A DNA stretch of 46,610 nucleotides from a virus (taxonomy: Duplodnaviria; Caudoviricetes), in IMG/VR virus record IMGVR_UViG_3300034993_000035, positions 1 to 46,610 of that record; one strand, written 5' to 3'. How positions within the stretch are numbered: the stretch's first letter is position 1; each line of letters opens with the position of its first letter. Below, in pieces: positions 14,331-28,950 of the stretch. The notes below the pieces were generated by a model. The model saw only the letters and a list, made by a program, of their open reading frames with translations, did not search any database and was not told where the DNA came from. The translations under genes and the position numbers were made by a program.

Positions 14331-14702
14331 TTATTTCTCCTGCACCCAAGACTTCAGCCACCCAAGAATCAACGCCCTGAGTGAGACGCCCTCACGCCGG
14401 GCCTTGTTCACAAGCACCGTCCACAACTCAGGCCCGACCAGTTTCGTTAACTCATCTTCCAGTTTCCGTCCACCGTGGCATCTATCGCACAGCCACTCAA
14501 TTAGCATCGGCTGCGAATGGTCAGGATGGTGAGCGATGATCGGTCGGAATCTATCTCTCTTGCGGCCGCACTGTTCGCAATGTTTCGGCCTGACGAGTTC
14601 ACCACGCCGGAGCGCCGTCCCAACTTTCGCATAGGCGCGCATCTTTCGGACGGCATGACCGCCGCGATCTGGATTACTTTCGGTTAGGATTGTGTCAGCC
14701 AT
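14331..14702 (-). CDS. HNH-like endonuclease with a C-terminal ribbon-helix-helix-like segment
   Basis: CEQCG...AHHPDHSQPMLIEWLCDRCH; then PELWTVLVNKARREGVSLRALILGWL. Confidence 0.7.
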   Translation of the reverse strand: MADTILTESNPDRGGHAVRKMRAYAKVGTALRRGELVRPKHCEQCGRKRDRFRPIIAHHPDHSQPMLIEWLCDRCHGGRKLEDELTKLVGPELWTVLVNKARREGVSLRALILGWLKSWVQEK

Positions 14703-14779
14703 GCTCAGCCGCTCCAACGGCGAAGGCCTGGTAGGGGTGCGATTGGTGAACCATTCACCGTCGCACTCCGCTAATCCTA

Positions 14780-14977
14780 TCACGATTGCTCACCCGTCAG
14801 CCGCGCCTCAGTCTGATACCGCAGCATCTTCTCCCCCCGTGACGCCGGGTTCATTTCCCTCACGAAAAAGCATTGGCTGCACTGGAGAAACCAGCGGCCG
14901 TCCCGCTTCACTCTGATCGTGTGCGGATGCCGACAGCCCACCACGAAGCGCCAGAGGCCCCAGAGAAACCGCATCAC
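14780..14977 (-). CDS. Hypothetical protein
   Basis: GCRH...QCSQC; coupled to the upstream gene. Confidence 0.6.
   Translation of the reverse strand: MMRFLWGLWRFVVGCRHPHTIRVKRDGRWFLQCSQCFFVREMNPASRGEKMLRYQTEARLTGEQS

Positions 14978-19107: not shown

Positions 19108-19111
<4 letters not shown>
18635..19111 (-). CDS. Putative helicase loader / replication accessory protein
   Basis: Follows the initiator; Y...L.D....V..AC...MPSAG.IR motif plus CFHCLDTGY...PCRC. Confidence 0.55.
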
Positions 19112-20006
<895 letters not shown>

Positions 20007-20010
<4 letters not shown>

Positions 20011-20051
20011 CGAGCACCGCCAAGGTGTACAGATAGACTGATTGGAGCCAT
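20007..20051 (-). CDS. Putative 14-aa leader peptide MAPISLSVHLGGAR, coupled to the initiator
   Basis: TAGGAGG SD; its TGA overlaps the initiator TTG (TTGA at 20010-20007). Confidence 0.55.
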
Positions 20052-20056
20052 GCGGC

Positions 20057-20130
20057 CGGGCCTCCTACGCCCGTGCTGACTGGTCAGGGACCGTTCGACG
20101 CTACCAACGTCGGCGGTCCCGCCTATTCTA
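20057..20130 (-). promoter_or_regulatory. TAGAAT -10 box, hairpin, CTGACCA and SD hairpin (c4-a1b1-like architecture)
   Basis: GGGACCG-CCGACG-TTGGTAG-CGTCG-AA-CGGTCCC-TGACCA; CGGGC-GTAGGAG-GCCCG. Confidence 0.55.
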
Positions 20131-20263
20131 CAGCAAATCAACCCTGCTTGCGCCGTCATTTCGCCTCGATTAGTCGCCCCGAATCAGCCACGCTCGGGAC
20201 CACACGCATGAGCGCCGCGCGTAGGAGGCGCGACGGGCTGAACTGGCCGTGCTCAACTCTCAA

Positions 20264-20359
20264 GTGACGCGGGCTGCTCTGAATCGCTAGGCGTCTTAGA
20301 AGCAGCTCTCGCTGGCGCCTTTCGGCACGCCTACGGTCAGAGACTCACGCCCGCGTCAC
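20264..20359 (-). ncRNA. Candidate structured RNA (96 nt, multibranch, two GNRA tetraloops)
   Basis: Nested 11-, 6- and 7-bp helices closing GCC-GAAA-GGC and CAGC-GAGA-GCTG. Confidence 0.6.
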
Positions 20360-20513
20360 CACTCGACTTGCTCAACTCGAAACTCAGTTGCCCGTCTCTC
20401 CGGGCCGTCACGTCTCCGGCTGTGCGGTCGCATCCACCAGCCGAGTGCTCACCGCCGACGTTCACTTCACCGACTTGCTAACAGTTCGGCGACCCGCTCA
20501 CTTTCAACAACCT

Positions 20514-20606
20514 TCACGCCAACCGCTTCGTTTCGACCTGCGCGAATGCGCTCGCTCTGCGGTCCCCCCTGTCGTGCGGCTTGCATGGCGCTACTGATTG
20601 GGTCAT
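20514..20606 (-). CDS. Possible 30-aa peptide MTQSVAPCKPHDRGDRRASAFAQVETKRLA
   Basis: AAGGAGA RBS directly before ATG (short spacing); below the ORF track cut-off. Confidence 0.4.
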   Translation of the reverse strand: MTQSVAPCKPHDRGDRRASAFAQVETKRLA

Positions 20607-20629
20607 TTCTCCTTTGGGTTATCTCTTTG

Positions 20630-20956
20630 TTACCCGTCCCAAATTTGGCCTGTCTCGGTGTTCTCAAACCTGAGCACCGAATCCGCATTGCCCGTGATGA
20701 TCAGCACGCGCTTGGAGTGCCGCAGATCGTGGCAGTCATCGCAGATATCCATAATGTTGCTGGTATCTTCGGCCATAGGTCCGACACGACCGCGGATGTG
20801 GTGATGCTGCGTGCGCTTGCGTTGGCAGGCGCGGCATCGCAGATGGTCCCGGATGTCCGCCTGCCTGTACGACGCGTGCCGCTGCCGCAGTTTGTTGTTC
20901 AGCTTCTTCACGTGATCCATGTGCCGCGTGGTCATCTGGCTGCGAAGGAGGGTCAT
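20630..20956 (-). CDS. HNH endonuclease
   Basis: RD..RCRAC...HHHI...NIMDICDDCHDLRH. Confidence 0.8.
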   Translation of the reverse strand: MTLLRSQMTTRHMDHVKKLNNKLRQRHASYRQADIRDHLRCRACQRKRTQHHHIRGRVGPMAEDTSNIMDICDDCHDLRHSKRVLIITGNADSVLRFENTETGQIWDG

Positions 20957-21165
20957 CGCGGCCACACCGCGCAGAGATCCTGAGCTGGAGCGTAGGAAGC
21001 GTGCGCGCCTTTATGCCTCGATCGACGGCAACACTTGAACCCGTCACACGTCGCCTCGCACCACATCACTTCAAATGGTCCCTGCGGATACGCCTTCGAC
21101 AACAAGCGCTTTCTCTCAGGCGTCATGTCCCGTGATTCCTCGTACCGCAGAACATCTGGATTCAC
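20953..21165 (-). CDS. Hypothetical Cys/His-rich protein
   Basis: GGGAGG RBS; C.ATCDGFKCC...H.G.H. Confidence 0.6.
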   Translation of the reverse strand: MNPDVLRYEESRDMTPERKRLLSKAYPQGPFEVMWCEATCDGFKCCRRSRHKGAHASYAPAQDLCAVWPR

Positions 21166-21227
21166 ACGGCCTCCCGCGCATCAGTGTCCATGTGCCGCGT
21201 GGTCATGGCGCTGCGTAAGAGGCTCAC
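21162..21227 (-). pseudogene. 21-codon remnant duplicating the HNH gene N-terminus
   Basis: MSLLRSAMTTRHMD versus MTLLRSQMTTRHMD; 20-bp exact repeat. Confidence 0.65.
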
Positions 21228-21793
21228 GACGCCACCTTAGGAGACGGCGAGAACTTCGCTTTCGCGCGAGCGAGAGCGGGGCCGATCAATTGGTGGATGC
21301 GCCCGCGGCTCAAGCCAAGTTCCTCACCAATACGATCCATAGTCCAGCCTTCAAAGAGGCCGGACAAAATCACGCGTTCGCGTTCGTTCGTTGCGTTGCG
21401 TAGTACGGCCTCGCGCTGGGTCCTACGATGAATCTGCTCGTCCACGTCAACGCTGTCGGCGGGAAGATCGATTTCCTCGCCCTCCTCGTTGATAGGCCAC
21501 GGATCGATATGCAGCACATGCTCCATCGGACCGTGCGACCCCTCTCCGAGCGCGTGCCACGTCCAACCGTTCTGGCGTTTCCAGATCCGATGGTGATGAC
21601 GGAGGTAACCGTCCACTGTTGAAAACACCCAACTCTTCACAGCAGCCCCACGCGATGGGTCGAAACTCCGAACAGCTTTCACTAATGCGAACATCGCGGT
21701 TGAACGCAATTCCTCGACCGTGTGGATGCCTTGCGACATGCGCGCGTACTTCACAGCGCCGCTTTCTGCATACGACATGTGCTCCACGATCAA
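21224..21793 (-). CDS. Sigma-70-family sigma factor (regions 2 and 4; start uncertain)
   Basis: EELRSTAMFALVKAVRSFDPSRG...W; ERERVIL...EGWTMDRIGEELGLSRGRIHQL. Confidence 0.88.
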   Translation of the reverse strand: MIVEHMSYAESGAVKYARMSQGIHTVEELRSTAMFALVKAVRSFDPSRGAAVKSWVFSTVDGYLRHHHRIWKRQNGWTWHALGEGSHGPMEHVLHIDPWPINEEGEEIDLPADSVDVDEQIHRRTQREAVLRNATNERERVILSGLFEGWTMDRIGEELGLSRGRIHQLIGPALARAKAKFSPSPKVAS

Positions 21794-26464: not shown

Positions 26465-26692
26465 TTAGGCGACCTCCACGAACTCGCGCGTCGGGATGCC
26501 GGTCAAAAATTCGATACGGGACGCGAGCGTCAACGACGGCCGGCGCACGCCGGACAGGACTTGTGAGACCTGTGCTGGTGTTACATCGAGCTGGGTCGCC
26601 AGCCACGACTGACTCTGCTTCTGTTTGTCAAGCCACTCGCGCAAGCGTTCGCGCCCGAGTTGCCGCTCCGGAGTTGAAGTGTGTCCATTCAC
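26465..26692 (-). CDS. cro: Cro-like XRE-HTH repressor
   Basis: LREWL.....SQSWLATQLDVTPAQVSQVLSGVRRPSL.LA.RIE..TGIP; divergent from cI. Confidence 0.85.
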   Translation of the reverse strand: MNGHTSTPERQLGRERLREWLDKQKQSQSWLATQLDVTPAQVSQVLSGVRRPSLTLASRIEFLTGIPTREFVEVA

Positions 26693-26701
26693 GATATGTG
26701 A

Positions 26702-26730
26702 ACGGTAACCAAACGTGACCGACGAGTCAA
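26702..26730 (-). promoter_or_regulatory. Early lytic promoter for cro
   Basis: TTGACT-17 bp-TACCGT, ending 9 nt before the GTG (near-leaderless). Confidence 0.65.
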
Positions 26731-26751
26731 GAGAATTGTCACGTTCCGTTA
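26706..26751. promoter_or_regulatory. Candidate operators: inverted pair GTCACGTT-NN-GTTA
   Basis: taaccaaacgtgac (26706-26719) and gtcacgttccgtta (26738-26751) flank the -35 box. Confidence 0.55.
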
Positions 26752-26822
26752 TGATTTCCAGTAACGATTTGAGCCACAAGGACTTACCGGCCGGATGCGC
26801 TACGCTATCGCCAGCTTCACTA

Positions 26823-27266
26823 ATGGCTAACGCCGCGCAGAACTTACGGGACCGGGTTCAAGAACTCATCGAACGAGACCAGAAGTCGGCCAGCGCGGTC
26901 GCTCGCGCGCTTGGCCATCGACCAGCGTGGTTGAGCATGTTTCTCACAGGGAAACGCGACATTCCTCTGAAAAATCTCGACAAGATCGCGGACTATTTCC
27001 GGGTACCGGTTGAGGCCTTGATCAGCTCTGACCCAATCCGTCACGGGGGTACGCAAGGCTCCGGGCGTGACCCAGCCACCTCACCTTCGGCTCGCCTACT
27101 CCAGATCGAGCGGCTTGAAGCCCGAGCCGCCCTCCGCGAGATCCACGACACCGCCCGCGCCATCCTCGACCGTTTCGACGATCGCGCAGAACCTGAACGA
27201 ACTCGACACCCTAAGACCGGCACTCATGGCCGAGGTCGGCCGGCTCATCGCCGCGCTGCTGGCTAG
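26823..27266 (+). CDS. CI-like XRE-HTH repressor (no S24 peptidase domain seen)
   Basis: LRDRVQEL...SASAVARALGHRPAWLSMFLTGKRDI.L.NLDKIADYF.VPV..L. Confidence 0.85.
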   Translation: MANAAQNLRDRVQELIERDQKSASAVARALGHRPAWLSMFLTGKRDIPLKNLDKIADYFRVPVEALISSDPIRHGGTQGSGRDPATSPSARLLQIERLEARAALREIHDTARAILDRFDDRAEPERTRHPKTGTHGRGRPAHRRAAG

Positions 27267-27280
27267 AGCGAGGAGACAAC

Positions 27281-27694
27281 ATGCGGCCTTCACTGATTCG
27301 GGCGATTTGTTTTGTGGCGATGTCTCTGTGCCTGTCCGCTTGCGACGACCAACCGGCAGGACCGACAGGACCGGACATCACCGGCACGTGGACAGGGACG
27401 CTGAACGATAGTTTAGCTGGCGTTGGCACCGTTCGCTTGACCATCATCCAGTCAGGCTCACGCCTCTCTGGTACATGGGCGAGCACGTTTCAAGATCCAA
27501 CCTTCAGTAACAGCGGCACGCTGACCGGCACGTATTCCGGCACATCAGCCACCATCACGCTCACACCGGGTGGCCAAGGCGCGTGCCCGTTTCGCGTGAC
27601 GGCCACCCCAACTGCAACTGCAATCACTGGCACTTACGCAGCCGTCAATTGCCAGATCGCCATCGGTGGCAGTGTCACCGTCACAAAAGAGTGA
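27281..27694 (+). CDS. Lipoprotein (beta-barrel-like), possible superinfection exclusion
   Basis: Lipobox LSAC; ITGTWTG; GAGGAG RBS; between cI and int. Confidence 0.8.
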   Translation: MRPSLIRAICFVAMSLCLSACDDQPAGPTGPDITGTWTGTLNDSLAGVGTVRLTIIQSGSRLSGTWASTFQDPTFSNSGTLTGTYSGTSATITLTPGGQGACPFRVTATPTATAITGTYAAVNCQIAIGGSVTVTKE

Positions 27695-28785
27695 AGCGCG
27701 ATCCCCTCTGGCGTGGCCTCGAACCCCACGGCGCCGGCTGGCGCGCGGTGGTCAGCCAAGGCCGCGACCGCCCCCGCTTCAAGAAGCATTTCCCCGCCGG
27801 GACACCCCCGCAGATCATGCAAGCGTGGCGGCGGGACACCAGGGACAAGCTGAGGTACACGCGCAAGATCCGCAGCCGCGCCGGGCTGTTTCGGGCCGAC
27901 GTGCGCCGCTACTTGGCGCTCGAAGCTGTGAAGCGCATGCCCACGGTGAAAGAACGCACCTACCATCTTCGGCTCTGGACCGCCGTCTTTAGCGACCTGC
28001 CCACCGACGCCATCACGGCCAACCAGATCGAGAGCCAGAAAATCCGCTGGGCCACAGAACCGCGGAGCGCGAAGGATGACCGGCCGCTCTCGGCCGTGGC
28101 GGTCAATCACCGGCTGAAGGCCCTGTCGAACCTCTTCGCCCGGCTCTATCCTGACTGGCCCAATCCGGTCAGGAAGGTGCCGGAAGAGACCGAAGCGCGG
28201 CCAGCGGGGAAAGGTCGGGCGATTCCCTACTCGGTCATCCAGCGCATTCTGGCGGCCCTGCCTGACCGTGGACGTGCTGACAGAGGCGCGCATGTGCCGA
28301 CGTTTTCCCGCACGAAGATCCGGCTGCGCTGTCTGGCCTACTGTCAGATCACCGCCGGGCAGATGATGCGGCTGACGCCGGAGGATCTGGACTTGTCAGC
28401 CGGGGCGATTCGCCTGCCCAGACGCTACAAGGGGCGCGGGGCTGACGCCCGCTGGGTGCCGCTCGTCACGCTAGCCGTGGCAGCCTTCACCGACTTTATG
28501 ACACACAATCTCTTCGGCCGGTTCTCGACATCCTCGACCTGGAAGAGCTTCAACCGTGCGGCGGCCCAGGTGGGCCTAGGACCGCTCCGGGTCTACGACC
28601 TGCGCCATTCGTTCGCCTCGGCCCTGGTCGCCGCCTCCAAGGACGACGGAGCCGCCCAGATGGCCCTCCAGCACGGCTCCCCGGAGACGACCCGACGCTA
28701 TACCGAGTCAGCCGTGGACCCGCGCATCCGTGACGCCATGACGAAATTGAATGCAGTATTGGGGGAACATTCCGGGGGAACTTGA
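27691..28785 (+). CDS. int: Tyrosine recombinase / integrase
   Basis: VNHRL.ALS.LF; YDLRHSFAS; LQHGS.ETT.RY; GTG 27691 coupled to the lipoprotein stop; adjacent tRNA fragment. Confidence 0.9.
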   Translation: MKRDPLWRGLEPHGAGWRAVVSQGRDRPRFKKHFPAGTPPQIMQAWRRDTRDKLRYTRKIRSRAGLFRADVRRYLALEAVKRMPTVKERTYHLRLWTAVFSDLPTDAITANQIESQKIRWATEPRSAKDDRPLSAVAVNHRLKALSNLFARLYPDWPNPVRKVPEETEARPAGKGRAIPYSVIQRILAALPDRGRADRGAHVPTFSRTKIRLRCLAYCQITAGQMMRLTPEDLDLSAGAIRLPRRYKGRGADARWVPLVTLAVAAFTDFMTHNLFGRFSTSSTWKSFNRAAAQVGLGPLRVYDLRHSFASALVAASKDDGAAQMALQHGSPETTRRYTESAVDPRIRDAMTKLNAVLGEHSGGT

Positions 28786-28826: not shown

Positions 28827-28907
28827 CATCGCGACACCGCAGGAGGCGGACAGGCGAAAGGTGACGAAAACTCAGGGAGAAATGGGGCGAAAGTGCGAGC
28901 GACTCAG

Positions 28908-28950
28908 TCGGCTTAGAAGGCCGATGCTCTGTCCCCTGAGCTACGGGCGC
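28908..28950 (-). mobile_element. attP core: 5' 43 nt of tRNA-Arg(UCU), a partial tRNA
   Basis: GCGCCCGTAGCTCAGGGGACAGAGCA-TCGGC-CTTCTAA-GCCGA contains acceptor 5' strand, D arm and anticodon arm; no T arm follows. Confidence 0.85.

Follow-up and report, generated by a model that had tools for sequence, protein, structure and literature searches.

Results

A leader ORF and stable hairpins precede a probable replication initiator gene

The window, by which we mean the whole stretch of DNA analysed (46,610 nucleotides; virus record IMGVR_UViG_3300034993_000035, Caudoviricetes), is a complete 46.6-kb record with direct terminal repeats. It carries an integrase gene (27583-28785), divergent cI-like and cro-like genes (26465-27266), recombination genes, a sigma factor gene, an HNH-like gene (20630-20965) and a DUF1376 gene (19108-20010). 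A truncated tRNA on the minus strand (28894-28950; 31.2 bits in Rfam) adjoins the integrase gene and likely marks the attP region. The element under study forms the 3' part of the 620-nucleotide stretch between the HNH-like and DUF1376 genes and reads on the minus strand; the reads covering it consisted only of identical or near-identical DNA. The following features surround the DUF1376 start and the region upstream.

19108-20010, minus strand: gene of a 300-amino-acid DUF1376 protein with a TTG start (Pfam match to residues 9-87), likely a replication initiator
19998-20023, minus strand: hairpin over an SD-like GGCGGU and the initiator TTG (−15.2 kcal/mol, z −4.28, 0/200 shuffles)
20007-20051, minus strand: 14-codon leader ORF with ATG at 20051 and a stop codon overlapping the TTG (TTGA), with the best SD score among the starts listed in 19990-20660
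20125-20130, minus strand: TAGAAT, candidate −10 box of a short transcript, proposed from sequence only
20264-20359, minus strand: very stable branched rod with GAAA/GAGA loops (−52.2 kcal/mol, z −5.41), flanked by a 10-nucleotide direct repeat at 20378 and 20259

The DUF1376 protein is annotated as 'primosomal protein' in PHROG and belongs to Atlas clusters with a DnaT domain. At this level of annotation it is a probable replication initiator; no relative with a solved structure was found. Its TTG codon is the first ATG, GTG or TTG past the in-frame stop and sits just before a conserved PPAFxFY motif. A sequence-only reading of this DNA had proposed a 14-amino-acid ORF whose stop overlaps this start, and the overlap was confirmed (ATG 20051, stop 20007, TTG 20010). 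An in-frame ORF of 50 codons, beginning at an ATG at 20159 with a GAGG SD, is open through to the TTG overlap and, judged from its sequence, could bypass a block of the leader SD. Within the DUF1376 gene, four to five tandem heptamers (19586-19620) encode a SPISDLR linker also present in relatives and are candidate origin iterons.

The same reading had placed a TAGAAT box between two hairpins and had envisaged read-through from cro. The box is present (20130-20125), but a full promoter was absent from a consensus scan (0 sites), which gave no −35 partner for it; the sense promoter and the antisense promoter described below are both proposed from a −10 box. The cro-like gene lies about 6.2 kb upstream and is thus not adjacent to the element. 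Given that a scan found no minus-strand terminator between cro and the element, read-through transcription would be possible.

Several further observations concern the upstream sequence. A phage-encoded sigma-70-type factor (21224-21793, minus strand) lies upstream of the element and could drive promoters that a consensus scan overlooks. Directly after the HNH-like gene is a 30-codon ORF (20514-20606, minus strand) with a strong AAGGAG SD and no Pfam match. Repeats of the GTTGAGC type (20000-20011, 20232-20259, 20364-20378 and 20471-20479, minus strand) lie on either side of the stable rod, with one overlapping the start codon of the initiator gene; three of the four minus-strand GTTGAGC copies of the genome fall in this region, where they are possible protein-binding or processing sites. 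Finally, a 28-nucleotide hairpin-containing segment (20386-20413, minus strand) is shared with Ralstonia phage intergenic regions (locus L132, 1501-1528; E 0.08).

An upstream hairpin loop is complementary to the SD loop of the leader ORF

20213-20235, minus strand: upstream hairpin with anti-SD loop CUCCUAC and an 8-bp stem (−13.1 kcal/mol folded alone)
20057-20073, minus strand: SD hairpin with loop GUAGGAG and a 5-bp stem (−8.8 kcal/mol folded alone)
20451-20462, minus strand: second complement, 12 nucleotides, matching the 5' arm (20106-20117) of the leader-family hairpin described below (10/20,000 shuffles)

The segments 20060-20070 and 20219-20229, which had been noted as perfect 11-nucleotide complements, are indeed exact, and each is unique in the window. 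All seven loop bases of the two minus-strand hairpins are complementary to each other. The downstream hairpin presents the SD of the 14-amino-acid ORF in its loop GUAGGAG (20073-20057), as had been stated, and the upstream hairpin was borne out as well, but with a loop register one base off the earlier drawing. The suggestion that the hairpin flanks are direct copies fared less well, since the likeness is modest and 54 of 31,020 sampled positions score equally high. Like the SD hairpin, the upstream hairpin has an ATG behind it, and the relative spacing is the same.

Dinucleotide shuffling of the 499-nucleotide upstream region produced an 11-nucleotide complement spanning the whole SD loop in 2 of 20,000 cases and any 11-nucleotide complement to the SD hairpin in 23 of 20,000, p-values that overstate the surprise because the loop is near a generic anti-SD (9-nucleotide matches to 4/46 other leaders) and because CUCC/CCUC is common upstream of the pseudoknot described below (16/22 loci; background 27%). 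The region holds three 11-nucleotide inverted pairs, compared with at most two in 3000 shuffles. Tested against the phage's own leaders, the upstream hairpin matches 11 nucleotides of the adjacent leader and only 5 nucleotides of a second family leader (14702). The 12-nucleotide complement at 20451-20462 was not formed in any computed fold. A 10-nucleotide match at the SD of a 389-amino-acid gene (16506) was considered as a co-evolved target and rejected, because its CGTAG is made up of the final codon and stop codon of the preceding gene and also occurs in a hairpin-less relative.

The leader belongs to a widespread family with a predicted SymR-like antisense RNA

The proximal 100 nucleotides represent one member of a widespread leader family laid out as a hairpin, UGACCA, an SD in a hairpin loop, AUG and an antisense −10 box in codons 5-6. 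That the SD-loop hairpin is a family trait accompanied by a predicted cis-antisense RNA had been overlooked in the sequence-only reading, as had the conserved pseudoknot. In the window the family features are as follows.

20081-20120, minus strand: family hairpin (20120-20087) followed by UGACCA; a profile built without the window matches 20125-20032 (E 0.00027)
20034-20039, plus strand: TAGACT, predicted cis-antisense −10 box in leader codons 5-6, with a −35 matching at only 2/6 positions in the window copy
20046-20121, plus strand: predicted two-hairpin antisense RNA of about 76 nucleotides, SymR-like, with first loop CUCCUAC, based on its fold and on register and length relative to E. coli symR

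A search pattern drawn from the window (TGACCA, GGAG, ATGGCT, 8 nucleotides, TCTA) gave 30 matches in viral contigs and, when AGGAG was required, 44 in genomes. This resulted in 65 distinct sequences including the window. A fold filter, which errs both ways, kept 48 of them as having a hairpin immediately ahead of TGACCA. The SD lies inside a hairpin loop in 35 of these 48. The T completing an antisense TAGANT box (position 6), which is outside the search pattern, was found in 40/48 family members compared with 9/17 of the remainder, and antisense −35 matches at the right distance averaged 2.90 in the family versus 2.31 ± 0.12 in shuffles. A sense −10 was scored in only 7/44 family members. 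Because the proximal leader is built like E. coli symE/SymR, we predict a cis-antisense RNA of about 76 nucleotides, whose loop and closing pairs are shared by the upstream hairpin; a scan found no U-tract terminator downstream of it.

A profile of 44 leaders with the window excluded recovered the window leader together with one DUF1376 relative (L011) and did not match the symE leader. The Rfam symR model (RF01809) gave 0 matches in the window at E 10, with E. coli symR matched as a positive control. Given that the profile misses symE and RF01809 misses the window, the leader resembles symE/SymR in anatomy and is not a member by sequence. RNAalifold on a MAFFT alignment of 45 leaders returned no consensus structure, and stem lengths vary; no Rfam family was found in 20 leader loci.

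Judged by their translations, the genes downstream of family leaders are mutually unrelated, and symE/SymR-type architecture appears to form a general cassette preceding HNH nucleases, integrases and initiators in several phyla. Coupling of a short ORF by ATGA/GTGA overlap was seen in 6 of 10 short-ORF family loci examined, four of them close relatives, and locus L018 contains, by eye, a 12-codon ORF abutting a DUF1376 start. Four loci (L053, L054, L092 and L097) combine a family leader with a conserved 29-codon ORF that is ATGA-coupled to an 80-amino-acid gene. The phage itself carries a second family leader (14684-14780, minus strand), comprising TAGGAT, a hairpin, TACCA, an SD-loop hairpin with GUUGGAG, ATGGCT at 14702 and an antisense TAGGAT; it precedes an endonuclease gene and has no upstream complement.

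A covarying pseudoknot lies between the hairpins with complementary loops

20173-20208, minus strand: candidate H-type pseudoknot with conserved copies in unrelated intergenic regions of phages (first stem in 22/27 pattern matches)

At this position a stem is shared with a close relative phage (locus L153, record G412), and a pattern drawn from the shared stem gave 32 viral matches, 27 of them distinct including the window. The crossing stem, whose bases are outside the pattern, is formed in 22/27, with a mean of 3.5 bp for a sequence's own pairing and 0.93 bp for cross pairings over all 27. By contrast, the long stem gives no covariation evidence because the search pattern fixed it. Two-sided changes filled 34 cells, a number reached in 0/500 shuffles, for 22 loci that had been preselected for having the stem. 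These 22 loci, the window and 21 other phage loci with the covarying pseudoknot, are mostly intergenic with the motif after a hairpin, and an SD and start codon follow within 45 nucleotides in 13/22. Some copies are near RNA genes: that in L167 stands 2 nucleotides ahead of a tRNA, and that in L165 follows one. One contig (L182, 1104-1534) contains a phage-encoded permuted tmRNA with the motif at its 3' end. The phage intergenic pseudoknot may thus mark RNA ends.

Rfam returned no family for the pseudoknot in 20 loci besides neighbouring tRNA/tmRNA, STAXI (RF01728) gave 0 matches at E 10 and those STAXI seed sequences that were compared also differ, and the pattern had 0 matches in 401 genomes from the phylum of an Acidobacteriota locus. 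As to strand, G-U pairs in the upstream stem and the pseudoknot, together with the GAAA/GAGA loops of the rod, suit the minus strand only.

Relatives carry the modules separately

The searches produced no second locus carrying both hairpins. We compared 44 other family leaders that have 300 nucleotides or more of upstream sequence; 0/44 have an upstream hairpin or a comparable complement, the best complements being 8 nucleotides to the SD and 9 nucleotides to the hairpin, versus 11 and 12 in the window. When segments upstream of pseudoknots were crossed with family SD hairpins, 0/1033 pairs reached 11 nucleotides. A scan for the exact 11+11 pattern gave 0 matches, and a relaxed one gave 6, none with leader anatomy on inspection. 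The 401-genome scan produced 21 matches in 15/401 genomes (6 not placed, 2 misplaced) and no second full element; the phylum used for the 401-genome scans is a guess. Blastn against phages, plasmids and the 401 genomes returned short matches only, and Rfam over the whole element gave no family.

The initiators closest to this one include P0002 (57%) and P0003 (51%, encoded on a 42-kb contig), as well as P0004-P0007. Scans anchored on the initiator yielded 29 viral and metagenome loci and 0 in genome contigs. In these loci the DUF1376 relatives are mostly simply coupled to the upstream gene, and 3/29 have, by eye, a leader of the family type; in these three, two of which are on short contigs, the upstream complement never exceeds 7 nucleotides. 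An anti-SD match in L049, located within the terminal part of the preceding gene, was taken to be fortuitous. Loci L028 and L029 carry, by eye, a different structured leader about 130 nucleotides upstream of 3001 and 2734, respectively, before a DUF1376-like gene, and between the two loci its long-range complement is altered on both sides. The relative L153/G412 keeps the pseudoknot and has no anti-SD hairpin, no leader and not this initiator at that place; compared at the sequence level, it neither supports nor refutes the loop pair.

Predicted folds close the SD in long transcripts

Because ViennaRNA handles neither kissing interactions nor pseudoknots, folds were computed with the pseudoknot bases held out. 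Long nascent RNAs ending at 20045 or 20000 had the SD in an 11-bp anti-SD duplex (P 0.97-1.0, 12/12), and the short RNA had it open (P 0.92-0.94). Scrambling the upstream loop reopened the SD in 123 of 124 long transcripts. The claim that the SD is blocked only when the upstream hairpin is present is thus supported by closed long and open short or scrambled transcripts, but more weakly without the pseudoknot constraint: its release dropped the duplex probability to 0.27-1.0, and to 0-0.86 for RNAs reaching 19960.

A further structure appeared when the short transcript was extended beyond about 19975, where the SD was closed by fold-back of initiator codons.

19957-19983, minus strand: initiator codons possibly folding back onto the SD hairpin in the equilibrium fold

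The significance of this fold-back is marginal, with equal pairing in 148/3000 synonymous recodings and 8/419 window tiles; on the folding model it could limit translation to a short window of time. Fold-back onto coding sequence as a family-wide property was rejected (mean z about +0.25).

Discussion

The complementary loops, the ORF overlap, the TTG hairpin, the family membership and the covarying pseudoknot are read directly from the DNA. We regard the feature as real and the mechanism outlined below, which draws on shuffle statistics and folding, as plausible. Our preferred explanation, to which we give about even credence, is that the region represents a translational gate on the DUF1376 protein operated by a leader, an antisense RNA and a same-strand anti-SD hairpin. 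With the TTG buried in a hairpin, ribosomes would arrive there only after translating the overlapping 14-codon leader, whose SD loop would be blocked by the predicted antisense RNA of SymR type and also, when the transcript is long, by the upstream hairpin. A short mRNA would begin after TAGAAT, at about 20118, and leave the SD loop open. The antisense RNA from TAGACT would then set a threshold, and only a surplus of short mRNA would yield initiator. In early read-through RNA, the upstream hairpin would fold first and kiss the SD loop emerging 150 nucleotides later, and this kissing complex would be converted into the 11-bp duplex; such RNA would make little initiator because its SD loop is first kissed and then held in the duplex. 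The pseudoknot would shield the anti-SD hairpin from mispairing with the intervening strand. The promoter of the message would thus decide initiator synthesis, most likely so that neither the lysogen nor the newly induced phage replicates at the wrong time. More tentatively, and with somewhat less than even confidence, we propose that a copy of the antisense RNA's loop carried by the message on its own strand constitutes an RNA-only filter for promoter of origin, assembled from two modules that Rfam 15 misses. The sequence-only reading had suggested a cis-acting timer or copy-number control. Leader coupling and an SD block in read-through RNA are supported, but copy-number control is unlikely because the phage has an integrase and an attP-like site, the latter being our interpretation.

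Could the loop match be incidental? A genuine SymR-type leader, antisense-controlled and coupled to the initiator, may simply lie downstream of a common hairpin-pseudoknot module with an often anti-SD-like loop, or the upstream hairpin may be the relic of a duplicated SD hairpin with a flipped loop, and in either case the match would be non-regulatory. The two modules do occur separately in many genomes, L153/G412 has its pseudoknot without the other parts, the upstream loop also gives 9-nucleotide matches to other leaders, and an ATG is placed alike after both hairpins. However, the loop-to-loop register is perfect, 0/1033 cross pairs reach 11 nucleotides and a second, independent 12-nucleotide complement exists; moreover, the predicted pairing is stable and would shut the gene off even if its origin were accidental. 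We consider an incidental match rather unlikely.

A trans-acting product appears improbable to us as well. According to this alternative, approximately 20480-20173 is cut from the early transcript as a pseudoknot-ended small RNA that acts in trans on the short mRNA through two seeds, in the manner of C4. The two complements are separate and, as for C4, are directed at the SD and at a site upstream of it; a pseudoknot at a tmRNA 3' end (L182) and beside tRNAs (L167, L165) fits a marker of RNA ends; the predicted trans duplex gains −13.6 to −19.9 kcal/mol; and the rod at 20264-20359 is stable. Set against these are the lack of a C4 family match and of a tRNA-like fold, seeds that are separated by 220 nucleotides and ordered in parallel with their targets, and, across 21 other phage records, the failure to find a consistent SD target for pseudoknot-upstream segments within the same record. 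Finally, the pairing may matter in plus-strand RNA, where a lengthened antisense transcript would fold back on its own loop and be inactivated, or the 50-codon ORF may activate the initiator in long transcripts. Complementarity holds on both strands, the scan found no U-tract terminator after the predicted antisense RNA, and the ORF has its GAGG SD and an uninterrupted frame to the TTG overlap; yet the G-U pairs and the rod loops suit the minus strand only, and the 50-codon frame would cross two stable hairpins, making this alternative very improbable.

If the gate proposed here is true, plasmid-style RNA control of replication, with an antisense RNA and a coupled leader peptide, works in a phage that integrates, supplemented by a further layer in which the transcript silences itself according to its start site. 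It would be a simple means, with the whole switch within 250 nucleotides, to keep leaky early transcription from firing the prophage origin. Whatever the role of the loop pair, the pseudoknot represents a compact, testable phage RNA absent from Rfam. In the literature on DUF1376/YdaU, phage initiators under antisense or leader control and SymR-like leaders, covered as titles and abstract openings with few subscription journals, this arrangement is not described. The leader or pseudoknot motif may be among the candidate RNAs of two published collections (PMC5737381, PMC10690425). DNAVirus_187 and DNAVirus_230 resemble the present element in lying within 25 bp upstream of phage DUF1376 genes but, compared by description only, are 49 and 75 nucleotides long with no function given in the accessible part of the report (PMC10690425).

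Among known systems, the closest anatomy is that of symE/SymR of E. coli (RF01809), which, in the portion of its report available (PMC1891008), shares the hairpin, short linker, SD in a hairpin loop and AUG, the antisense −10 in codons 5-6 (CATTCT in symE; TAGACT at 20034-20039 here) and a two-hairpin antisense RNA of about 77 nucleotides, here predicted from the fold. That portion reports no same-strand mimic for symE (PMC1891008). In our phage the place of the SymE toxin as target is taken by a 14-codon leader, to which a DUF1376 gene would be coupled.

A short ORF coupled to the regulated gene (icd-ant) is also part of the C4 system. The C4 RNA of P1/P7, as described in the available text (PMC5320573), is likewise a same-strand upstream RNA with one segment directed against the ribosome-binding site and one against upstream sequence, and that of P1 acts via its b' and a' loops (PMC5320573). 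In contrast, our element has no match to the C4 covariance model and no cloverleaf, and its seeds are 220 nucleotides apart.

Plasmid replication control provides the other comparison, and the sequence-only reading had invoked both R1 and ColIb-P9. Leader-peptide coupling justifies the analogy, but ColIb-P9 serves poorly as a model of the loop pairing, since RepZ translation there depends on the pseudoknot. In ColIb-P9 Inc/repY/repZ, according to the sections of the review available (PMC8053102), an upstream loop likewise pairs at long range in a rep leader with a leader peptide, and the resulting pseudoknot is essential for RepZ translation (PMC8053102); unlike that case, the pairing here covers the leader SD and is predicted to close it and repress. 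R1 CopA/tap/repA and IncI2 AS RNA/repR/repA, from the same sections (PMC8053102), have an antisense RNA from the leader's opposite strand and a leader ORF that overlaps the initiator start and is needed for its translation, and for our phage both the antisense RNA and the coupling are predicted. The R1-type trait of a leader ORF overlapping a start hidden in a stem-loop is found here. What sets our element apart from R1 and IncI2 is an integrating phage as its carrier, other RNA and protein families and the extra same-strand anti-SD hairpin. On our best reading, plasmid-style control of a phage initiator by antisense RNA and leader peptide is joined by a same-strand antisense mimic, which would silence read-through RNA.
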